Of a stretch of DNA of 64,000 nt, positions 1 to 10,417 are shown piece after piece. A program made the position numbers and the translations under genes. Under the pieces are notes generated by a model. It had not been told where the DNA came from. It was given only the letters and a program-made list of their open reading frames with translations, and made no database searches. This stretch comes from an uncultured virus (IMG/VR IMGVR_UViG_3300021375_000010) (Duplodnaviria; Heunggongvirae; Uroviricota; Caudoviricetes): IMG/VR virus record IMGVR_UViG_3300021375_000010. One strand, given 5' to 3'. Numbering within the stretch: position 1 is the first letter of the stretch; each line of letters begins with the position of its first letter.

Positions 1-2
1 TA

Positions 3-122
3 GATTACCTAACAACACCTTATGCAGAAGGTGGTCTTGGTGTTCATGACACTAGTCCAACTTACTATGCTTACTATAGTATAGTTAGAGATTGGAGAGA
101 CAACTTAGAGTATGGAGACTAA
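3..122 (+). CDS. Hypothetical protein, C-terminal fragment (runs off the left edge)
   Basis: Open frame DYLTTPYAEGG...LEYGD* ending at TAA 120-122, just before the next gene. Confidence 0.45.
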   Translation, partial: DYLTTPYAEGGLGVHDTSPTYYAYYSIVRDWRDNLEYGD

Positions 123-123
123 A

Positions 124-579
124 ATGCAAATTGAAGTAGGAAAAGAATATACGATTTATCCCAAGTATAAAAAATCGTATACAGAACGTGAAGTGTTCAA
201 GGACAATGATAGTGAAGATAGAGTTGTCATTGAAGCACTTTGGAGAAGTGGTGCATATATCATCAAGGTAACTAACGAAGAAGAGAAGGAAACCTTAGAA
301 GCATATATGTCAGAAGGTGCAACTGGTGATATGGAACCATGTGAATTCGAAGAGAATGAATTTGTGGAGTCTTTTGATGAGTGTGGACGTGATGTTTATG
401 TTCACCTTGCAGAAGGTAGTAAAGCAGATGAAGATTCAATTCTAGAAGCAGTCGAAGAAGAAGGACATGATTGGTTTTGGGATAATAACTATGATTCATG
501 GGATGCAGAACACTTCTTTGGTTTACCATTACAGGTAGATGAGGTTGACCCCGATAACAGATATAACTTGAGGTTCTGA
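124..579 (+). CDS. Acidic hypothetical phage protein
   Basis: ORF track gives 112..579; GGAG SD before ATG 124 favours that start; stop overlaps the gp33 start. Confidence 0.7.
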   Translation: MQIEVGKEYTIYPKYKKSYTEREVFKDNDSEDRVVIEALWRSGAYIIKVTNEEEKETLEAYMSEGATGDMEPCEFEENEFVESFDECGRDVYVHLAEGSKADEDSILEAVEEEGHDWFWDNNYDSWDAEHFFGLPLQVDEVDPDNRYNLRF

Positions 580-818
580 TGATTACTAAGAAAAATTTTA
601 CAGAACAAGTTGAAAAACTAATTGTACGTGGAAGAGGTTGTGATGTAATGTCAGCAATCATTAAAGTGTGCGAAACAAACAGTCTTGAACCCGAAAGTGC
701 TAAGAGACTATTATCAAATCCGCTAAAAGAAAAACTTGAAGCAGAGGCTCAAAAATTAAACCTAATCAATCGTGGCCAAGTGAGTCAGGCAAATATCACG
801 AAATTTTATGAGGACTAA
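579..818 (+). CDS. gp33: Late transcription coactivator gp33
   Basis: 79 aa with LEPESAKRLLSNPLKEKLEAEA..LNL motif; T4-like synteny 33-59-32. Confidence 0.85.
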   Translation: MITKKNFTEQVEKLIVRGRGCDVMSAIIKVCETNSLEPESAKRLLSNPLKEKLEAEAQKLNLINRGQVSQANITKFYED

Positions 819-819
819 A

Positions 820-1122
820 ATGAAAGAATTAATTAATGAGGTAATAACAATTGTTACTGCCACAGGTGAGTACGTTGGTAAACTGGATACACTCCAGCAA
901 GACGACACTTCAGTTGTACTATCTAACCCTAGGATGATTATCCAAAACCAAGAAGGTCAAATGGGATTCGCTAGGGGAGTTGCTGTAACAGGTGAAGAGA
1001 ACCCTAAGACAATGGTTGTGAAAGACTACATCTTTATGTGTGCAACCAATGACAAAGTCACAGAAGCATATAACACTGCTACTGGTGAAATCCATATCCC
1101 CGAGAAAAAGATTATTACTTAA
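820..1122 (+). CDS. Conserved hypothetical protein, possible Sm-like beta fold
   Basis: TIVTATGEYVGKL...VVLSNPR pattern; GAGG SD before ATG 820 (track start 808). Confidence 0.6.
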   Translation: MKELINEVITIVTATGEYVGKLDTLQQDDTSVVLSNPRMIIQNQEGQMGFARGVAVTGEENPKTMVVKDYIFMCATNDKVTEAYNTATGEIHIPEKKIIT

Positions 1123-1712
1123 TGACATCTAGGGATGGATATGATGCATATACGTTGTACCTTGGAATTAAGTTACACTTCAATTCTAAGGATTATGACT
1201 TCATTAAATACAACGGAAAAGTACGAAGTGATATCAACTCTTTCCTAAAGCGGAAAGATAAGTTTCACTTTGGAAAACTTCACAAAATTTATAAAGATAA
1301 CCTACAAGACTTCTATATCGCCAATCTATCTCAGAAAGATAGTTGGGCGGGAGACTTGTTAAACGAAGAAGCAGAACGTGTCTACGCCGATTGGAGAAAA
1401 CGTCAACAGAAGTTGTCGTATATGTTTCAATCAGAAGTGTCAGATGTGTTACGTAAAAGAACAATACAAAAAGTTCTAGAAGTAAAGAACGGTCAGCATC
1501 CTTGGTTATTACGAGACTATCTAGCAAAGAATGTCTCACTCGAAACTCTTTGTATCATGGATGAGATAATCGGGTTCACTACAGATTGGGAGAGACTAAT
1601 CTCTGAGAAGGTAGTGTACCCCGATGTCCATACTAAGATACGAAAGTACAAGACGTTTATAAGTGTAGACCATAAGAAATTTAAAAAGATTCTTTTGGAT
1701 GTATGTTCATAA
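1122..1712 (+). CDS. gp59: Helicase loader gp59
   Basis: YLGIKLHF..KDYDFIKYNGK..SFLKRKDK motif; directly upstream of gp32. Confidence 0.9.
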   Translation: MTSRDGYDAYTLYLGIKLHFNSKDYDFIKYNGKVRSDINSFLKRKDKFHFGKLHKIYKDNLQDFYIANLSQKDSWAGDLLNEEAERVYADWRKRQQKLSYMFQSEVSDVLRKRTIQKVLEVKNGQHPWLLRDYLAKNVSLETLCIMDEIIGFTTDWERLISEKVVYPDVHTKIRKYKTFISVDHKKFKKILLDVCS

Positions 1713-1747
1713 ACGCCTAAATAAAATCGTCTATTATAAAAACCCTC

Positions 1748-1776
1748 TTGTATTATTGCAAGTGATGACGTATAAT
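1748..1776 (+). promoter_or_regulatory. Sigma70-like promoter for gp32
   Basis: TTGTAT-N17-TATAAT in the intergenic region. Confidence 0.7.
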
Positions 1777-1781
1777 AGATT

Positions 1782-1824
1782 AATACAATGCAAATACAAT
1801 GTTAATACAATAGGAGAATACAAT
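1782..1824 (+). repeat. Four AATACAAT copies in the gp32 leader, candidate autoregulatory operator
   Basis: AATACAAT at 1782, 1793, 1804 and 1817; the last copy overlaps the ATG. Confidence 0.6.
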
Positions 1825-2719
1825 GTCAGCATCATTAGATAAACTAAGAGCAGCTATGGAAACTGCTTCACCTACAGAAGGTGCAAAAAAATCCTACACA
1901 GACGACACGATGTGGAAACCCGAACTTGATAAAACAGGTAACGGTTTTGCGGTAGTTCGTTTTCTACCCACACCCGAGGGAGAAGAGATGCCATGGGTAT
2001 CATACTTTGACCACGGTTTCCAAGGCCCAGGCGGTTGGTATATTGAGAAGTCTTTGACTACACTTAATAAACAAGACCCTGTGTCAGAATACAATACTCA
2101 GTTATGGAATACTGGGATTGAAGCAAACAAAGAAACTGCTAGAAAGCAGAAGAGACGTTTACACTATGTGTCAAATGTTTATGTTGTTTCAGACCCAAAA
2201 AATCCATCTAACGAAGGTAAAGTATACAAATACAGATATGGTAAGAAAATCTTTGAACAACTCAAAGAGGCTATCTCACCAGCATTTGAAGACGAACAAG
2301 CAATTAATCCTTTCGACCTAAGAGAAGGTGCGAACTTTAAGATTAAGATTAGAAAAGTAGACGGTTACTGGAACTATGACAAATCAGAGTTTGATACACC
2401 TGCCGCTTTGTTCGAAGATGAAGCACAGTTGAATACTATATATTCATCTGCTCATTCATTATCAGGCATAATTGCGCCAGAAGAGTTCAAGTCTTACGAT
2501 GAACTCAAAGAGAAACTCGATAGAGTTCTCGGTCTAACTGGTTCAGTGAGTAATTCAACTGCAGAGTCAGTTGCGGAAGATATGGACGAAGTGCCATGGT
2601 CTAACGTTAACAAAGAGACGGTTGCAGATGAACCTGTAATCTCATCAGCGGAAATGTCTTCTAGTAGTTCAGAAGAGAATGATGCGATGGATTACTTTAA
2701 GAAGTTGGCTAACGATTAA
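1823..2719 (+). CDS. gp32: Single-stranded DNA-binding protein gp32
   Basis: WKPELDKTGNGFAVVRFLP, HGFQGPGGWYIE, GANFKIKIRKVDGYWNYDKSEF motifs and acidic tail. Confidence 0.96.
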   Translation: MSASLDKLRAAMETASPTEGAKKSYTDDTMWKPELDKTGNGFAVVRFLPTPEGEEMPWVSYFDHGFQGPGGWYIEKSLTTLNKQDPVSEYNTQLWNTGIEANKETARKQKRRLHYVSNVYVVSDPKNPSNEGKVYKYRYGKKIFEQLKEAISPAFEDEQAINPFDLREGANFKIKIRKVDGYWNYDKSEFDTPAALFEDEAQLNTIYSSAHSLSGIIAPEEFKSYDELKEKLDRVLGLTGSVSNSTAESVAEDMDEVPWSNVNKETVADEPVISSAEMSSSSSEENDAMDYFKKLAND

Positions 2720-2743
2720 TTAGTTAGTTAACTACTTATAAAT

Positions 2744-2905
2744 GGGAGTCTACACATCTATATCATGTGTCCATGCGAAGTGTAGACTAACTGAGACCGT
2801 AGGAATGGGGGTACTCAGTAAGGGAAAGGTAGTCGGGGTCAAAGCGGGACTATCGGTACAGAGCGGGATGCTGTAAAGTTGATTGGGGCGACTGTACATC
2901 TTTTT
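2744..2905 (+). ncRNA. Putative multi-hairpin structured RNA upstream of bS21
   Basis: Stems 2747-2755/2780-2788, 2790-2795/2814-2819, 2828-2834/2848-2854, 2856-2861/2892-2897; TATAAAT at 2737; T-run at 2901. Confidence 0.55.
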
Positions 2906-2925
2906 AAATAACGAACGGAAATTTT

Positions 2926-3162
2926 ATGCCAAGTGTAACACCAAGAACAGATAAACGAAAGTCTAACGAAGAACCATTTGATAAGATGTTGAGACGTTGG
3001 AAGAAATCATGCGAACGTGCTGGTATCGTTCAAGAGGTTAGAGACAGGCAACACTTTGAAAAACCTAGTTCTATTAAGAATGAGCAAAAACAGGCAATCA
3101 AGCGTAGGAAAAAAATCAACGCAAAGAGGGCTGCTCAAAAAGGTTTTCGATTAGGGAGATAG
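2926..3162 (+). CDS. rpsU: Phage-encoded 30S ribosomal protein bS21
   Basis: EEPFDKMLRRWKKSCERAGIVQEVRDRQHFEKPS matches the S21 signature. Confidence 0.92.
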   Translation: MPSVTPRTDKRKSNEEPFDKMLRRWKKSCERAGIVQEVRDRQHFEKPSSIKNEQKQAIKRRKKINAKRAAQKGFRLGR

Positions 3163-3164
3163 AT

Positions 3165-3392
3165 ATGGTAGGGCCGAAAGGAGAAACAACTTACAACCTT
3201 CATAATGGTTCATGGGAAGGTGGTAAAGGTTCCCACACTAGAGGGAAGGATAAGAAATCATACGATGCTTATGCTGCTGGTTGGGACGCAATTTTTACTA
3301 AAAAGAAAGTAGAGAAGAAAGTAGAGAAGAAAGATGAAACAATTGAGGAGACCACAACGTCCAAAGACGAGGTACCACAAAGTTCTGTTTGA
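3165..3392 (+). CDS. Small conserved phage hypothetical protein (GGKGS...WDAIF type)
   Basis: GGGAG SD; GGKGS..R...YAAGWDAIF motif. Confidence 0.6.
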   Translation: MVGPKGETTYNLHNGSWEGGKGSHTRGKDKKSYDAYAAGWDAIFTKKKVEKKVEKKDETIEETTTSKDEVPQSSV

Positions 3393-3492
3393 GAAGGATT
3401 CACCCTTCCGAGCTCAAACCATTCCTAATAAGAAAAAACGTATTCCACGTAAATCAAAATATCCTAGATTAGAACGCAACAGCGTATCCTAA
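3334..3492 (+). CDS. 52-aa basic protein, ArfA-like
   Basis: Hand-translated MKQLRRPQRPKTRYHKVLFEKDSPFRAQTIPNKKKRIPRKSKYPRLERNSVS; below the ORF-track size cutoff. Confidence 0.5.
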   Translation: MKQLRRPQRPKTRYHKVLFEKDSPFRAQTIPNKKKRIPRKSKYPRLERNSVS

Positions 3493-5952
3493 TTTCGCAG
3501 ACGAATCATTATCATTAACAACAGGCATACTAGATATTGCATTATTAGTAACATTAGTTTGATTGTTATTCTGTTGTGTTACTGCAGTATTGATTGGTGC
3601 CTTTTCCGATTCAGTCTTTGATTCTAATTCCATTTCTCGAGCAGTCTTAACTCTGTCACCAGTCTCTTCATATTCCATATCACCAAAGAAGTCTTCTTCA
3701 CCAGTCGCTACCATATTACTCTTAGCATAGTCTTTTCTTTGGTCTAGGGTACCTTGAATGTCTGTTACTTCTTGTTCAGCACTGAACTTAGTCTTTTCAA
3801 TCTCTGCAGATGTCATACCTTCAAAACCAGTCTTGACACTGCTTGTATCCATATAGTCTAGTCCGCCGGAATCAGCCTTATTTTCTAGGTATTCTCTTTT
3901 CTCATCACCTTCGAGAGTTTCTCCATTTACGGTAACATTACCTTTCATACCTTGAGCAATATTTCTTTCTCTTCGTCTCAACTGCATATCAGCATTGTAT
4001 GCTTGGTCTTCTTGGGCCTTTCTTTCATTGATGAGTTCTTGGGTATTAGTATCTTCCAATCCAGTCGCCATCGCTGTTGCCGCTGGTGACATTTCACCAG
4101 TAGAGTCAACAGATTCAGCCTGTTCATCTGTAATTGGTGCCTCAGCCTCGTTTCCGAAAATCTTTTTGACCAACCAATTGGGTAATATCTTTGAAGCAAA
4201 ATCTCTTAACATCTTACCGATGTCTATGTCGAATACATTCTTAAAGAAGTCACCGATTGCTTTAAACGGTGCCATGAGTAAATCCCATAGACCACCAAAC
4301 ATACCAGTAAGACCTTCCATGACTCTATCAAAGTCACCTGTAAATAGTCCCACAACCAAATCAAACATACCAGCAAAGATATCAAAGATTGCTTGACCTA
4401 TGTTCATGAGGTATGATATTCCAGTGTCTATGATACCTTTAAACCATCCAACATTCTCATACATTGCCATAAACGCATTGTAGAGTATCACACCAGCTGC
4501 AAGTATAGCAACACCGATTGCAATGAACGGTAGTGCAGTCAATAACATACTACCAGCAGTCAAAAGTAAACCACCAATAAATGCAAGACCAGCTGCAATA
4601 AATGGTATGACAGAGGCAAGCATTCCAGCAGCTGCTGTGGCCATTGCTCTGCCCGCATTTAGTATTGCCATTCCCATTGCACTTGCACCAGCCATTAGGA
4701 ATACCATGCCTGATTTGATTGATGCAGCTGCAGCTGTAACCATCGACTTACCAGCAAGTATTAATGACATCCCCATTTGTTTAACGCCGCCCAATATGCC
4801 AGAAAGACCTTTAGCAATTACGCCTTTTGCAGTATCAAACCCAGCGGAAAGAGTAGATGATATAGAACTAACACCTTTTGAAATTATTGCAGAGGGCGAA
4901 CCTAGTAACGAATCAAGTCCTTTCAATCCGTTCTTCAACCCATCACCGATACTGGTAAAGAATCCCGTAGTACTCATTACCAAGTTTTGGAATAGGTCTT
5001 CTGTAGCGAATATCTTACCAACAGCATCAATGTTTTTAACTACATCATCCGCAAGTCCGACAAGGTCAAACCCTGTGAGTGTTTTGAGACCATCAGAGAA
5101 TTGACCAAGACGACCCGAATCCGTTGAAATTTCTGCCATCTTGTCGCCAATTAAAGTTTCTTCTACATCTTTAACTGCTTGTTGTTTATCAAGTATCTTT
5201 TGGTTCTTTTGTTTCAACTCATCTAATTTAGTGCCTTGTAACTCTAGAGTTTCTTTCTCTTTAGCAAATCTTAAATCCAAAGACTCCATAGTTCTTTTCT
5301 TAACTTCTTCTGCTTTCTTATCGAGTTCATCTCTTCTTTTGTTTGCTTCACCTAATTCTTTGGCAGTTTGAGCTGCACCTGTTAGTGCATACTCTTTAGC
5401 AAGTTTTTCAGCATCTTGTCTTGCTGTTTCAGTTTCGTTAAGAAGTGTTTGATATTGTTCTGTCTTACCAAGGATTGTTTCTGTTTGTTGTTCTTGTCTA
5501 TCTTGAAGTGCTTGTTTCTTACCATTCAACATCTGTTCACGGAATGCAAGGTTCTCATTCTCTTCCGCTGCTTCCATGAATTTTTTATGTGAGTTGACGT
5601 ACTTCGTCAAATCCACTTCAGGAAAGGAGTCCTCTAACTTTTTAAATTCTTCAGATGACTTATCGAGAGTTCCTTCCATAACACCAGCAAGGGATGATTG
5701 CAAACCTAAAAGTTTGTTTCCCTGTAAAGCGCCTGAGTAGGTGGACTTTTGAGTATTGATAGAATCGAGTGATATCTTAGATAGTGCTTGGTTAGTAGTT
5801 TTAAGTTTTTCGATAGAAGCACCAAACCGTTTGTTAACGCTCTTCATGCCCTTATCGATATCTCTACCACCTTGTTGTAACGTCTTTTCTATGTCAGTCG
5901 TTACACTGGTGATTCTATCGTTAATCTTCTTTATGTCCTTGTCATCTGCCAT
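3469..5952 (-). CDS. Tape-measure-like / baseplate hub (gp29-like) protein
   Basis: 827 aa; coiled-coil N-half, Gly/Ala-rich hydrophobic centre; lies downstream of gp26/gp51-like genes. Confidence 0.65.
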   Translation of the reverse strand: MADDKDIKKINDRITSVTTDIEKTLQQGGRDIDKGMKSVNKRFGASIEKLKTTNQALSKISLDSINTQKSTYSGALQGNKLLGLQSSLAGVMEGTLDKSSEEFKKLEDSFPEVDLTKYVNSHKKFMEAAEENENLAFREQMLNGKKQALQDRQEQQTETILGKTEQYQTLLNETETARQDAEKLAKEYALTGAAQTAKELGEANKRRDELDKKAEEVKKRTMESLDLRFAKEKETLELQGTKLDELKQKNQKILDKQQAVKDVEETLIGDKMAEISTDSGRLGQFSDGLKTLTGFDLVGLADDVVKNIDAVGKIFATEDLFQNLVMSTTGFFTSIGDGLKNGLKGLDSLLGSPSAIISKGVSSISSTLSAGFDTAKGVIAKGLSGILGGVKQMGMSLILAGKSMVTAAAASIKSGMVFLMAGASAMGMAILNAGRAMATAAAGMLASVIPFIAAGLAFIGGLLLTAGSMLLTALPFIAIGVAILAAGVILYNAFMAMYENVGWFKGIIDTGISYLMNIGQAIFDIFAGMFDLVVGLFTGDFDRVMEGLTGMFGGLWDLLMAPFKAIGDFFKNVFDIDIGKMLRDFASKILPNWLVKKIFGNEAEAPITDEQAESVDSTGEMSPAATAMATGLEDTNTQELINERKAQEDQAYNADMQLRRRERNIAQGMKGNVTVNGETLEGDEKREYLENKADSGGLDYMDTSSVKTGFEGMTSAEIEKTKFSAEQEVTDIQGTLDQRKDYAKSNMVATGEEDFFGDMEYEETGDRVKTAREMELESKTESEKAPINTAVTQQNNNQTNVTNNAISSMPVVNDNDSSAKLGYAVAF

Positions 5953-5956
5953 TTAA

Positions 5957-6343
5957 TTATTTTCCGAATGCTTTTCCTGCTTCTGATATTCCAAACGCAC
6001 CTAACGTTACTACAACAAATGAAGTGTAGATAGTGTCAGATACTTTTAAGTCCATATCCCAAAATGCAGTAATTAAATCTGCCATTCCGAATACGACCAT
6101 TAAAAAGAATGAGGCAAATCCTATGATTGCTTTTTCATTGATGTCATTTTCATCTCTGAACAATGCACCAATAGAGAACCTTTCTTTTGGTTTTGCTGCT
6201 GCTGTTGCAACTTGCAATTCCTTAGATAACTTCTCCATCTCTTTGATTTTGTCCTGTGCTTCGTCTAACTTCAAGACCATCTCTGTATACTTAGCAACAT
6301 CTATCTCGACATTACCTTGACTAATTTTTTTGTCGTCACTCAT
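5957..6343 (-). CDS. Membrane protein with two TM helices and an N-terminal coiled coil
   Basis: IIGFASFFLMVVFGMADL and TSFVVVTLGAFGI hydrophobic segments; GAGG SD. Confidence 0.7.
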   Translation of the reverse strand: MSDDKKISQGNVEIDVAKYTEMVLKLDEAQDKIKEMEKLSKELQVATAAAKPKERFSIGALFRDENDINEKAIIGFASFFLMVVFGMADLITAFWDMDLKVSDTIYTSFVVVTLGAFGISEAGKAFGK

Positions 6344-6388
6344 AATTTGTGTCCTCTATTATTATGAATCACTTACACATAACGAATA

Positions 6389-6520
6389 TTAATTATTTTT
6401 TCGTTGTTCGTTCTTTAGCCTTTCCTCTTCTAAGTGTTGAAGTAATAGGTTGATGTATACCTCTCGTTCCCATGGTATCATCTCATCTAGTTCAGTTAAT
6501 GAATACTTGTGGTGTTGCAT
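6389..6520 (-). CDS. gp51: gp51-like baseplate hub assembly protein (short ORF, probably also made as a frameshift fusion with gp26)
   Basis: Hand-translated MQHHKYSLTELDEMIPWEREVYINLLLQHLEEE...; frame stays open upstream to the gp26 stop region. Confidence 0.75.
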   Translation of the reverse strand: MQHHKYSLTELDEMIPWEREVYINLLLQHLEEERLKNEQRKNN

Positions 6521-6573
6521 TAACTGAAAGTTGGTGTTATAAAAATTCAACACCGACTCGTGGGAAAGGCCTA

Positions 6574-7278
6574 TTAAAAAAAACTTTGGATGCCTTCCAG
6601 TACTCTAGTGTTCTCTTTGGAACATATTTCGCACGAGTAACTTACTTCATGTCTTAGTTTTGGTAAACTATCAAAGAACTGCCCGAGTTTGTCTAGTTGA
6701 GTAAACGTCAAACTATCAAAAAACTCATCCAACTCTTTTTGAGATACATCTTCCATAGGATACACTTCATCGGCATCAAATACAGAAGTGATACATCTCT
6801 TCACAATCTCCATACTCTGTTGTGTTTCGTCCATCTTTGTCAATCCATCGATGTCTCTAACACTAGGAACTTTCAATTTAACACCCAAGTCATCTGTTAA
6901 CATGACTGTGTCGTCTTCAGGCATTTCACTTGTGGGTTCAATGTCTTCCAAATTTAAATCTACTTTTGCATTTCCTCTACATCCTTCGTCTGTACAACCA
7001 AGTACTAACTTAGATGTTTCACCAACTGAAACAGAACGGACTTTAATAAACAACCATTCCATATCCATCATAGCAATATTTGGTATCTTTAACTTACCAA
7101 ATGTACATGCATCAAGCATCTTAATGATTGATTGCATAACTTGTTCTTGGTCATTGCTTTCTTTTGCCATGACTAGAACTTTTTGTTCCTTTACTAGGAA
7201 TGGTCTATATTCTACTTCTTGACCATTACTAGGTAGCACTGTTTTATAAGTCGGTGCCGACTGAATCGGTAATGCCAT
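6574..7278 (-). CDS. gp26: Baseplate hub subunit gp26
   Basis: MALP..PTY..LPS..VEYRPFLVKEQKVL; IKVRSVSVGE; C-terminal CxxC..LEGIQSFF. Confidence 0.88.
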   Translation of the reverse strand: MALPIQSAPTYKTVLPSNGQEVEYRPFLVKEQKVLVMAKESNDQEQVMQSIIKMLDACTFGKLKIPNIAMMDMEWLFIKVRSVSVGETSKLVLGCTDEGCRGNAKVDLNLEDIEPTSEMPEDDTVMLTDDLGVKLKVPSVRDIDGLTKMDETQQSMEIVKRCITSVFDADEVYPMEDVSQKELDEFFDSLTFTQLDKLGQFFDSLPKLRHEVSYSCEICSKENTRVLEGIQSFF

Positions 7279-7297
7279 AATTACTCCATATTATATT

Positions 7298-8134
7298 TTA
7301 TTGAGTTCCAAAAAGGTCTCTCACATTCTTGTAACTGTTATCAATCCTCGATTTTGCAGTAGTAAGTCCTGAGACTTTATTCTGTAACCTTCCAGCAGCA
7401 CTAGAAAATCTAGAACCGACCGCTAAGGCCTCTTGCAAGTTATCGATTTGACTCCTACCACTATTTAGTCCGTTCGGAGTCGTCCCTTCACCATTATAAA
7501 CAGGGTGAGGAGTTTTCTGTGGATTTTTACTCTCCACATATTCTGTAGTAAAATATCTGTATGCAAATTGTACACTTACACTTAACATTTCACCTTGTGC
7601 CATATCCAATACCAGTTCATCGATTGATGTTGGATATGCATCATGTAATCTTGTTATTAGACTTGCACCTTGTTGCCCATCAGAAGCAAAGGTAGGATTA
7701 TACCCATCCTTTCTAAGGTGTTTAATTTCTACTTCACCAATATAGTCTTTATAGAATGCAAAGATAGGTTGTGTGTTTGGGTCTGAACCTTCTCCTTGTT
7801 CAGGAGCTGCAGTGTCACCACCATAGATTGAGTCTAACCATAATTGCATGATTCTTCTATCTAAGAAATCAATGTCACAATAGAATGTGAATGTTGCAGT
7901 TCCACCGTCATCAATTTTACCTGTTGGAAGAAACTTAGATTTACCTTGTGTGTTCTTTTCAGTAACTTCTATTTTTCTACTTGGAATAGTTGCAGTCTTA
8001 CATCTAACTGCATTAAGTGTTAACCCTTGAGGGCCAAAAAACGCAACCTCAAATTGGTTTGCCATTGCTGGAGCTTTAATTGCACCGATGATAGTGTCTA
8101 TCGAGTCGTGTCTATTTCTTGGTTTATCTTCCAT
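7298..8134 (-). CDS. gp54: Baseplate tail-tube initiator (gp54 / tube-fold family)
   Basis: NQFEV..CKTATIP..TFYCD..W..AYPTSI..SVQFAYRYF tube-fold pattern. Confidence 0.7.
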   Translation of the reverse strand: MEDKPRNRHDSIDTIIGAIKAPAMANQFEVAFFGPQGLTLNAVRCKTATIPSRKIEVTEKNTQGKSKFLPTGKIDDGGTATFTFYCDIDFLDRRIMQLWLDSIYGGDTAAPEQGEGSDPNTQPIFAFYKDYIGEVEIKHLRKDGYNPTFASDGQQGASLITRLHDAYPTSIDELVLDMAQGEMLSVSVQFAYRYFTTEYVESKNPQKTPHPVYNGEGTTPNGLNSGRSQIDNLQEALAVGSRFSSAAGRLQNKVSGLTTAKSRIDNSYKNVRDLFGTQ

Positions 8135-8143
8135 TATACTTCC

Positions 8144-8248
8144 TTAAATAAATAACAATGCCAATACAAATCCAACATTAAACCCTAGTGAGCATACTAG
8201 AATGAAATCTTTTCTAAATGATGTATTTACTGCATAGTAAGTTTTCAT
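8144..8248 (-). CDS. 34-aa hydrophobic peptide
   Basis: MKTYYAVNTSFRKDFILVCSLGFNVGFVLALLFI; TAATG overlap with the gp2 stop; fills the gap between genes. Confidence 0.5.
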   Translation of the reverse strand: MKTYYAVNTSFRKDFILVCSLGFNVGFVLALLFI

Positions 8249-8844
8249 TACACTACCCTTTTGAGTGATTCAGCGTATACTGTGTTTGCATTGAATGCTG
8301 AACCTTGGTTGTCTACAAATTTCTGAGATGGTAACATTGCAACCACGTCCCAGTAATCATATGGTATCTCTCTTATTTGACCTTTAATATGTGTTGTGAG
8401 ATACTCTTTCACACACGGTCTTGCCCATTTTAACTTTGATATGGACTTAACCATATCGTATGTAAGTTTTAGTCTAGTGTTCTCATCATCCCCCATATCG
8501 GGGTCTACTGCTAACTGGTCAAACACTTCCAACAATTCTAATCTCTTTCTTGGTGGGAGATAGTGTAAATTTAAACCTAAGAATCCTTTACTTCTAGGTT
8601 CTATTGGTATCACTACAGGGTATTTATCCCAATAAGGCAATGTAGCATACCCCTTTGCACCATAATTAAACAACACTAGAGTACCTAAAAATGGTTTTCT
8701 TATTGGTGTTCCTTCTACTAGTAACTTATTACGATTGACCTTTATAGTTCTAAGATTGTCCTTAAACCATTCTCTAGCTTCTAAGGACTTTTCTTCAATC
8801 TCAGACGGAAGTAAATTGTCATAGTTCTTAAGAATAGATGCCAT
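8248..8844 (-). CDS. gp2: DNA end protector protein gp2
   Basis: LPYWDKYP..GFLGLNLHYLPP..R..PCVKEYL motifs. Confidence 0.9.
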   Translation of the reverse strand: MASILKNYDNLLPSEIEEKSLEAREWFKDNLRTIKVNRNKLLVEGTPIRKPFLGTLVLFNYGAKGYATLPYWDKYPVVIPIEPRSKGFLGLNLHYLPPRKRLELLEVFDQLAVDPDMGDDENTRLKLTYDMVKSISKLKWARPCVKEYLTTHIKGQIREIPYDYWDVVAMLPSQKFVDNQGSAFNANTVYAESLKRVV

Positions 8845-8849
8845 ACATC

Positions 8850-8857
8850 TATTTATA
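8850..8857 (-). promoter_or_regulatory. T4-type late promoter TATAAATA
   Basis: TATTTATA on the + strand immediately upstream of gp2. Confidence 0.65.
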
Positions 8858-9289
8858 CTAAGTTAGATGGTCTTCAGTTAATATTCTAAATTTATATTTA
8901 CGGTCTTTGCAGTATTCGTTAGCTGCTTTGAACTTTGCTTGATTGACAAGGTATGTTGCAACCTCGTTGATATACCTTTTGGTTTTTCGTTTGGGTTCTT
9001 TGGGTGGTTTGGTTTGCTTCTTGGGTTTAACTTCGATGATTTCATATAACACTTCACCCTTAGTGTTACGATATTTTATGTAGAAATCGGGGAAGTATCT
9101 ATGAACCTTGTTGTCCACAGGAGAAATGTATGGTATAATGATTTCTTCACTACCCCATTCCAGTATGTTAGTGTTATCATCACAATATTGCATGAATCTT
9201 CGCTCCCACAGCGAACGATAGACAATCTTTGTGGGGTCGCCTGTATATTTTTTGTAATTCTTCGGTTTAAACCGTCCGCTATATGACAT
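8858..9289 (-). CDS. gp4: Head completion nuclease gp4
   Basis: YSGRFKPKNYKKY.GDP..YRSLWE..YFPDF..IEVKP motifs; start at MSYSG. Confidence 0.92.
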   Translation of the reverse strand: MSYSGRFKPKNYKKYTGDPTKIVYRSLWERRFMQYCDDNTNILEWGSEEIIIPYISPVDNKVHRYFPDFYIKYRNTKGEVLYEIIEVKPKKQTKPPKEPKRKTKRYINEVATYLVNQAKFKAANEYCKDRKYKFRILTEDHLT

Positions 9290-9319
9290 AAATAGATGTA
9301 ACAATAATGAAACTCTAGG

Positions 9320-9327
9320 TATTTATA
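9320..9327 (-). promoter_or_regulatory. T4-type late promoter TATAAATA (for gp4)
   Basis: TATTTATA on the + strand in the divergent gp4/gp48 gap. Confidence 0.6.
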
Positions 9328-9328
9328 C

Positions 9329-10417
9329 ATGGCATCACTAAACAAAATTCTATCGAAAGTCAACTCTGCTTCATCAGCATTGAAATCAGTAAAAGGACTG
9401 AAGTCTAAAATCTCAAATACAGACTACAAGAAAACAATCGCAGACCTATCAAACTATGATGCTCTTAAAGAACTAGCAGATAAAGAAAGAGAGATATTAG
9501 AAGGACGAAGAAGTCGACTCAATCAAGATGAGGATGCTGCTAACAAAATGAAATCCATTAAGGCTGCTAAGAGACCACCCGCTGGACAAACAAAAGAACT
9601 ACAGTATCCTTTAGAACAACTCAACAACTATCTAGAAATAAAAATTAGACCAAGAAAACAACAGAACAGTGGTGCTAATGCTAAAAACTTAATGAACGAC
9701 ACAGACACATACATTTATATGTACGTTCCTACTGGTCAAGTAAGTGAGGCAAAGGTTTCATATAAAGAAGGTGAGGTCGGTGTAGCTGCAAGGGGTGTTA
9801 TGGATATCATGGGGGCAGAAGGTTTCGTTGATACAAGTGTGGCAATTGGTGATGCATTGAATGCTGCTATATCATCAGGTCTAAATAAGATGGCTAATAT
9901 GGCAACAGGTGATGTTGTTAACTTTGCACAGGGACAAGCAGTCAACCCAATGAAAGAACAGATGTTAGAGGGTGTTGGGTTCCGTTCATTCAATATGGAA
10001 TTTACAATGAGACCAGTATCACAAGAAGAAGCAGATGTATGTAAAGAAATTATATACACTTTAAGAACTGCCATGTTGCCCGACACTTTTGGTTCGGATG
10101 AGACAAATCAGATTGAGAATTATTTTAACTATCCGAACATTATCGATTTAAGATGGGAAGGGCCTATTCAATATACTATGGACGGATTCTTACCAGCAGT
10201 AATTACAGATGCATCTGTAACATATGGTGGTGGTAGTACACTAGAGACTTTTTCCGATGGCACACCACTAGAGATGAAGTTGAATTTATCATTTACTGAG
10301 ATTAAAGTTCTTACACAGGAAACGTATCAGATGATATCACCACACCCAAAAGCAGACACTAGTATAGGTGGTGGTACACGAAGTATACTCGACACTAGAG
10401 ATACAACCAACGGATAA
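9329..10417 (+). CDS. gp48: Baseplate tail-tube cap gp48
   Basis: NPMKEQMLEGVGFRSFNMEFTMRP.S.EEA; LNLSFTE. Confidence 0.85.
   Translation: MASLNKILSKVNSASSALKSVKGLKSKISNTDYKKTIADLSNYDALKELADKEREILEGRRSRLNQDEDAANKMKSIKAAKRPPAGQTKELQYPLEQLNNYLEIKIRPRKQQNSGANAKNLMNDTDTYIYMYVPTGQVSEAKVSYKEGEVGVAARGVMDIMGAEGFVDTSVAIGDALNAAISSGLNKMANMATGDVVNFAQGQAVNPMKEQMLEGVGFRSFNMEFTMRPVSQEEADVCKEIIYTLRTAMLPDTFGSDETNQIENYFNYPNIIDLRWEGPIQYTMDGFLPAVITDASVTYGGGSTLETFSDGTPLEMKLNLSFTEIKVLTQETYQMISPHPKADTSIGGGTRSILDTRDTTNG

Follow-up and report, generated by a model that had tools for sequence, protein, structure and literature searches.

The RNA described here lies in a window of 64,000 nucleotides, the whole stretch of DNA analysed, from the record of a T4-like phage (120,692 bases, 67% complete). 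The locus runs from gp33 and gp59 through gp32, the RNA and bS21 into convergent tail genes. On the + strand, the gp32 gene (1823..2719; PHROG 224, E 1e-104) is followed by a structured RNA of about 155 nt (2744..2898, + strand; covariance model R1, 147 bits) and then by the bS21 gene (2926..3162, + strand; PF01165, E 1.4e-13), which is the neighbour of the RNA here and holds no fixed position relative to it. The G-rich stretch singled out in the initial annotation is borne out by composition, the element being the only 154-nt window with seven G-tracts in the 120-kb genome (step 20), with a maximum of six elsewhere. By model R1, whose training set includes the window itself, the element is single-copy in the source phage record. 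Beyond bS21, the small basic ORF 3165-3392 contains a GGKGS motif and matches neither Pfam nor PHROG.

Viral loci were gathered with bS21 and three gp32 proteins as queries, and the 103 non-redundant RNAs fall into subfamilies A (68, including that of the window), B (15), C (18) and D (2). From the gp32 stop to the first GGG there are 8-12 nt in 50 of the 68 subfamily-A sequences. ORFs similar to the one at 3165-3392 follow bS21 or the RNA at A and B loci. In a gp32 tree of 73 non-redundant full-length rows, made by a quick method and rooted at the midpoint, a single branch (SH-aLRT 94) separates the 34 carriers from all other rows, and in 34/34 of these rows, all of one marine T4-like clade, the RNA lies directly after gp32. 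Because all carriers form one clade, the conservation reflects one origin. Metagenome matches found by RNA pattern alone likewise have gp32 upstream in 48/48 cases. Model R1, built on A, scores subfamily B weakly (21 bits for L435, 17 bits for L401) and gives no match at the remaining B, C and D loci submitted to it; since it barely crosses subfamilies, homology between them rests on position, motif order and the tree.

Searches elsewhere were negative. A blastn search against 50,697 phage records gave no match, and the gp32 regions of the isolates Melnitz, HTVC008M and Mosig gave no R1 match, so that no cultured carrier was found among these. In cellular genomes, a short pattern matched at chance level (one contig, L300/L554, was examined further), the C pattern had no match, and the specific A pattern had two, of which L555 has no model match and L554 is a phage contig. 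A loose B/C pattern was mostly unspecific in viral sequences, and its matches were excluded from the results. The L554 contig (JAAXIF010000105.1, 121 kb), from a Sphingobacteriales bin, has the order gp33-gp59-gp32-RNA-methylase-bS21 and, as a phage, gives at most a weak hint of a host; a search for the host through relatives of bS21 returned no informative cellular neighbour.

Helices and unpaired G-tracts

Folded by itself, the sequence of the element is not above chance (z = -0.68, with a fold at least as good in 48 of 200 shuffles). Rfam 15 gave no match at E<=5 over window positions 1-10000, leaving intact the novelty that a known family would have removed, and in 14 + 12 further loci, including the carriers L435 and L437, nothing was found over the element at E<=1. 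With the single-sequence fold at chance and no Rfam match, the evidence for structure had to come from relatives. Four consecutive stems had been predicted, and all four are found in place, P2 extending 3 bp further beyond a bulged A. On the + strand, P1 (2747..2788) pairs 2747-2755 with 2780-2788 over 9 bp and has a loop with AUG, often with GUGUCC. P2 (2790..2819) pairs 2790-2798 with 2810-2819 around the bulged A, with compensatory changes in 6 of its 9 pairs, and P3 (2828..2854) pairs 2828-2834 with 2848-2854, including one G-U, with compensatory changes in 6 of 7. P4 (2856..2897; 7 of 8 pairs compensatory) consists of an outer stem of 6 bp (2856-2861/2892-2897) and an inner stem of 2 bp (2863-2864/2888-2889). 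Two small hairpins had been drawn inside P4; the alignment gives instead the inner 2-bp stem (G-C in 44 sequences, A-U in 19), which closes a GGG-loop-GGG.

Covariation, proposed as a check with the initial annotation, was measured on P2-P4 in 63 subfamily-A homologues, where 19 of 24 pairs show compensatory changes and 97% of cells are paired. The covariation score is 0.59, whereas shuffles give 0.18 and slid controls no more than 0.08; the consensus structure, being derived from the same 63-sequence alignment, is favoured over the slid control. P1, which was not aligned by MAFFT, appears as a stem of 7-15 bp at the matching place in 67/67 parsed A sequences, a count without a chance control. 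Subfamily C shows compensatory changes in 21 of 39 pairs (17 of the 18 sequences). The automatic consensus of subfamily B has only 3 pairs (14 of the 15 sequences, in a poorly registered alignment), and a P3 of 6-7 bp is present in 15/15 B sequences. Helix covariation thus supports a conserved structured non-coding RNA, and because stem cells hold 67 G-U against 10 A-C combinations, it is the + strand that folds, as a single strand.

This tolerance of G-U bears on a DNA-level or R-loop element, either a G-loop origin or a primer-forming terminator, placed beside the replication genes. The non-template strand does carry the G-clusters, gp59 and gp32 are close by, and T4 origins are described as using R-loops (PMC3016281). 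However, a folded single strand, as implied by the G-U-tolerant helices, would oppose the hybrid, and the promoter is of the late type; we consider an R-loop element scarcely probable at all.

Several smaller features were noted in the same alignments. Candidate pseudoknots (P2-loop CCGU/RCGG and L3/UGCUG) and a tRNA-CCA pairing were rejected by eye in alignment A1, where the partners are paired elsewhere or unconserved. A mini-ORF in the P1 loop of subfamily A (AUG...UGA) was also rejected, the stop distance in frame 0 being no better than in frames 1 and 2. Variants at 2776 and 2849 in the RNA contigs X7 and X20 match locus L003, and with 2849 A>G one P3 pair changes from A-U to G-U. One locus (L098:2900-3030) lacks P1, T1 and T3 and keeps T4-T7, either by natural deletion or by assembly error, and the P1 loop is short in L128 and L229.

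While the stem sequences vary, the unpaired Gs stay fixed in seven tracts of the form G(N0-2)GG, T1-T7. In the window, all on the + strand, T1 (2744..2746) stands 5′ of P1, at the start of which a run of at least three Gs is found in 66 of 67 A sequences; T2 (2799-2803, G-UA-GG; GUGG in 58/67) and T3 (2807-2809, GGG) share the P2 loop, with the exception of subfamily C, where T2 precedes P2. T4 and its NAA linker (2822..2827) join P2 to P3, the tract being GGG in A and G-A-GG, G-U-GG or G-C-GG in B-D, and T5 (2844-2847, GCGG) ends the P3 loop. Atop P4 and enclosed by it, T6 (GGG, 2865-2867), UGCUGUAA (2869-2876) and T7 (GGG, 2885-2887) form invariant alignment columns. GGG and G-N-GG replace one another at T3, T4 and T6, and T2 tolerates bulges of 1-2 nt; T6 reads G-A-GG in two A sequences, and at T3 the GGG of A gives way to G-A-GG in most of B. 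Spacers range from 4 to 29 nt between T6 and T7 and from 3 to 30 nt between T2 and T3, with inserted hairpins tolerated. Subfamily D, the minimal form at 81 nt, keeps T4-T7 and one upstream G-run. A GC(A/U)G element is mobile, lying in the P4 loop in 66/68 A and in the P3 loop in 35/35 B-D sequences. G-motifs had been described in loops and linkers, and they are present there, but stem P3 takes in the GA of the first CGGGA, and conservation is lacking for the GGGG at 2835-2838.

The filter that defined the 103 RNAs required T5-T7, which makes their invariance at those tracts circular; the fair tests are searches by protein only or by partial pattern. Among 185 distinct gp32 3′ flanks picked by protein alone, the four-tract core occurs in 73/73 at gp32 identities of at least 70%, in 48/61 at 57-70% and in 1/51 below 57%, compared with 1/9250 in shuffles. 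A pattern limited to T4-P3-T5 gave 68 metagenome matches (53 distinct); T6/T7 are present in all 52 that have enough 3′ flank, and gp32, TATAAATA and at least three upstream tracts in all 48 that have enough 5′ flank. The converse pattern, T6-T7 only, gave 76 distinct viral matches, 74 of them with T4/T5, while the other two (L186, L249) look like chance. Invariant unpaired columns in alignment A1 are mostly G, with a single unpaired C, and CCC occurs in 8/103 sequences; with no conserved C-run, the tracts have no internal pairing partner. A C that may pair with the third G of T2 is present in 17/17 subfamily-C sequences, which makes any count of quadruplex tiers tentative.

Instead of forming a quadruplex, the tracts might present a multimeric protein that binds G, and is not CsrA, with repeated single-stranded sites. 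Protein-titrating sRNAs display several similar motifs in loops, a layout that the seven similar loop motifs resemble, and the NAA flank after T4 and the GC(A/U)G element are conserved as well. Against such sites, the bases beside most tracts vary freely, the spacing from G to GG shifts by 0-2 nt, and two tracts in one loop can be as close as 4 nt. We regard this arrangement as quite improbable.

The GGA, SD and bS21 readings

The G-rich loops had initially suggested an sRNA that titrates CsrA/RsmA, and GGA is indeed frequent at some tracts. It is found at T2/P2 loop in 63 of 67 A sequences, at T4 in 47/68 A and 18/18 C, and at T6 in 33/68 A and 16/18 C, with 4-8 GGA per sequence in subfamily C. 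However, T3, T5 and T7 keep the G and not the following A, the A after GG thus being dispensable there: at T5, it is present in 27/68 A, 0/15 B, 0/18 C and 0/2 D, and at T7 in 0/103. The motif A(N)GGA is wholly absent from 18/68 A sequences. The high-affinity CsrA site is given as an ANGGAX hexaloop (PMC4005645), and the RNA has no such hexaloop on a stem. Nor was csrA (PF02599) found in the source phage record, which is 67% complete. A CsrA/RsmA sponge is therefore a weak reading, and we rate it as very improbable.

The second early suggestion, a leader or SD mimic linked to bS21, did not hold in that form. Only in 52 of the 103 RNAs is bS21 the adjacent downstream gene; in 10 it lies behind another gene, in 28 upstream of gp32 and in 13 outside the locus, while the RNA stays after gp32. 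In many relatives, an inserted methylase separates bS21 from the RNA, or bS21 is found 2.5 kb before gp32. In 9/68 A loci, a promoter-like motif stands between the RNA and the gene that follows it, counted by a pattern set after inspection and without a control. Since the position of bS21 varies and such motifs intervene, the RNA is not an rpsU leader. As for SD mimicry, CCUCC, the anti-SD mimic, is found in 0/103 and GGAGG in 1/103. At L083:3088-3975 and nine similar A loci, the RNA and bS21 are separated by a gene for a product of about 295 aa, an N6/N4 DNA methylase in the case of L083.

A trans partnership is a separate matter, in which the RNA would be a partner of phage bS21 or of the 30S subunit, its tracts pairing with the anti-SD tail or binding bS21 so as to modulate late translation. 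In a search of the tree rows with this clade's own bS21 proteins and flanks of 1.5-3 kb, bS21 lies within the locus of 29/34 RNA-bearing rows (the other 5 have short flanks) and of 0/36 other rows; because the RNA and a nearby bS21 mark the same clade, a trans link between them can still be entertained. A precedent is at hand in OLE, another non-coding RNA, where bS21 is reported to bind an SD-duplex mimic (PMC12054373). Yet one clade is one event and offers no independent support, bS21 does not keep its position, the RNA contains no mimic of an SD:anti-SD duplex, and GCGG fits CCUC poorly. In addition, HTVC008M is reported to encode bS21, yet its gp32 region has no model match. We consider a bS21/30S partnership decidedly unlikely. 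Judged by its conservation, the RNA is tied to gp32 by position and is neither GGA-based nor SD-based.

Promoters, transcript and 3′ end

A T4-like late promoter motif is given as TATAAATA (PMC9004378), with the late-promoter box about one turn upstream of the start (PMC2988020). The TATAAAT at 2737..2743 (+ strand), which abuts T1 and had been noted as late-promoter-like, is found at that place in 1/68 A sequences, and the full TATAAATA in 0/68; it would start transcription inside P1 and is probably not the promoter of the RNA in subfamily A. The other subfamilies differ: TATAAATA, which occurs 19 times in the source phage genome, stands 6-32 nt after the gp32 stop in 35/35 B-D loci. The next ORF is convergent in 14/14 scorable C loci (4 loci were too short), in 3/13 B and in 0/2 D, and because of the convergent ORF in all 14, the promoter of subfamily C serves only the RNA. 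At several B and D loci (L131:2865-2935, L437:2192-2235 and others), a hairpin encloses the late promoter; since the promoter lies inside it, this hairpin could form only in gp32 read-through transcripts. The upstream G-run of subfamily D would be sequestered in it, which may provide a timing switch. By eye, B and D loci also have an AUG near the predicted start; a stop often follows in frame after 2-4 codons at most, so that the two may mark a leaderless mini-ORF.

In subfamily A, where a late motif lies within the last 300 nt of gp32 in 6/68 sequences, release from the gp32 transcript is probably the simplest route to the RNA. For T4, the gene 32 mRNA is described as having a conserved RNase E cut near its stop (PMC3014915), which suggests this route for subfamily A by analogy. 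The region of the window is present in 20 of the 21 sequencing runs listed, 19 of them on record as RNA and from 13 studies; in 3 of 4 runs, a contig of this phage spans gp32 sequence and the element, although such contigs give no ends, strand or level and may reflect DNA carry-over. RNA contigs continue through gp32, the RNA and bS21, and the end of one X14 contig at 2708 carries no weight as evidence. A T run had been noted after the stems. The run itself is there, as an A followed by a U-rich tail (2898..2905, + strand), a possible 3′ end, with at least four Ts in 9 nt in 66/68 A, 13/15 B, 11/18 C and 0/2 D; a terminator scan lists no terminator at the site.

These observations weigh on whether the element acts in cis at the 3′ end of the gp32 mRNA, where it would replace a terminator, block 3′-5′ exonucleases or stop transcription, possibly via a G-tract fold. 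It always follows the gp32 stop directly, many phages outside the clade have (by eye) a hairpin and U-run at that place, the tail is U-rich in A and B, and gp32 and the element are joined on RNA contigs. Against this, a dedicated late promoter separates gp32 from the RNA in every B-D locus, nothing else is there to transcribe in the 14 C loci, the U-tail is weak in C and D, and a terminator needs far fewer than seven tracts and four helices. A cis role seems to us unlikely, if well short of implausible, and a stand-alone transcript is the likely product.

A candidate quadruplex core and its relation to known RNAs

Fixed unpaired Gs, bulges, variable spacers and the absence of a C partner are the pattern that a quadruplex with bulged tracts and helical loops would leave. 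From this tract pattern, and guided by solved aptamers, we infer a G-quadruplex core with somewhat better than even confidence. Building on the observed helices, tract conservation, B-D promoter, gene context and one-clade distribution, the proposal is of a phage non-coding RNA of about 80-200 nt in which the Watson-Crick helices P1-P4 would position the unpaired G(N0-2)GG tracts so that they stack into an intramolecular G-quadruplex. The minimal core would be T4-T7, with P3 and P4 serving as helical loops, and T1-T3 could supply a second stack or a dimer surface. Synthesis would be late, from the RNA's own TATAAATA promoter in subfamilies B-D, and in subfamily A, that of the window, the RNA would probably be cut out of the gp32 transcript. 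A compact fold may resist decay, letting the RNA accumulate and work in trans as a protein decoy or scaffold; as partners, the first to consider would be host RNA-decay factors or helicases, along with phage bS21/30S, which is co-inherited. The decoy role and its protein partner are offered as a weak suggestion, and the whole chain, from helix-scaffolded quadruplex core through late synthesis and decay resistance to trans decoy or scaffold, we place a little below an even chance.

The canonical (G3 N1-7)x4 motif is absent, helices occupying the spacers between tracts, and ViennaRNA with its G4 option, which cannot model bulges or helical loops, predicts a quadruplex in 0/4 sequences. By the looser standard drawn from aptamers, at least four conserved unpaired G-tracts with tolerance of bulges and loops are present. 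Counting against a quadruplex, seven tracts are not a multiple of four. One could also imagine a natural phage-encoded aptamer, in which the seven tracts and GC(A/U)G would form two stacked, helix-linked quadruplexes with an incomplete tetrad face as the binding site of a guanine nucleotide that acts as a signal (GTP, ppGpp or an immune messenger of the cyclic-nucleotide type), making an RNA-only sponge or sensor of late infection; we hold such an aptamer to be distinctly improbable.

The Mango, Spinach, Corn and sc1 aptamers are laboratory RNAs of some 30-100 nt with solved structures. Like the RNA described here, they have bulged, non-contiguous G-tracts joined to A-form helices, and bulged tracts and G4-duplex junctions are described as the syntax of such solved aptamer quadruplexes (PMC7962482). 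Unlike them, the present RNA is a natural phage family with seven tracts, four helices and a quadruplex that we infer. CsrB, RsmY and RsmZ likewise have several short hairpins with G-rich loops and linkers; in contrast to their A(N)GGA, the conserved unit here is G(N0-2)GG, with tracts at stem-loop junctions and often two per loop. OLE RNA P6 is similar as part of a non-coding RNA with a possible tie to bS21, but the phage RNA has neither CCUCC nor an SD duplex mimic and no Rfam sequence match. Structured RNA beside gp32 in T4-like phages is also known from the T4 gene 32 operator pseudoknot and 12 candidates upstream of gp32 (Fremin et al., 2023, PMC10690425); those are reported 5′ of gp32, within 25 nt, whereas this RNA lies 3′ of the stop and has its own promoter in three subfamilies. 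RNA quadruplexes of bacterial cells have been reported in mRNAs (PMC6974567), and what is described there is not the conserved core of a covarying non-coding RNA class.

How rare RNA quadruplexes are in bacteria is contested, since they are reported as widespread (PMC6974567) and, by the title of Guo and Bartel as cited there, as depleted. Complex helix-joined quadruplexes are known chiefly from aptamers selected in the laboratory and, according to a review, appear to be commoner there than in natural RNAs (PMC7962482). With more than 100 diverse sequences, a clear covariation map and an 81-nt minimal form, this natural family would allow a direct test of whether a bacterial or phage RNA can retain such a fold at its core through evolution. 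An RNA is also added to a bS21-bearing clade of marine phages that metatranscriptomes from 13 studies contain. Literature searches, covering titles and the openings of abstracts, returned no description of this RNA. In Fremin et al. (2023, PMC10690425), its motif strings are absent from the searchable text of the supplement, although a partial model may be among the 10,006 candidates, and the accessible table of candidates within 25 nt has no entry containing "Ribosom". A term search of the main texts of three 2026 language-model preprints and of Weinberg 2017 found nothing relevant. Phage bS21 is covered in PMC6375957 and PMC9723584, and the words "noncoding" and "gp32" are absent from the accessible text of the latter. 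The RNA class of this one marine phage clade is real and, as far as Rfam and the literature searches reach, undescribed.

Structured RNAs seem to gather at the position 3′ of gp32. In Methylophilales phage Melnitz-3 (L551:2374-2480) and at L143, L145-L148 and L159, gp32 is followed by another, distinct RNA-like element that is conserved; six aligned sequences show AAGG/CCUU and GUG/CAC stems and an apparent pseudoknot, followed by a terminator, and Rfam has no match over it. Melnitz is a cultured phage, which makes its element testable. In L499-L502, the first 90 nt after gp32 show complementarity, both nested and crossing, that suggests a third structured element, with no Rfam match in L499 or L502. 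Upstream of gp32, outside the clade, lie tmRNA pieces and two tRNAs (L502:1-327; L543:1-55; L503:806-960).
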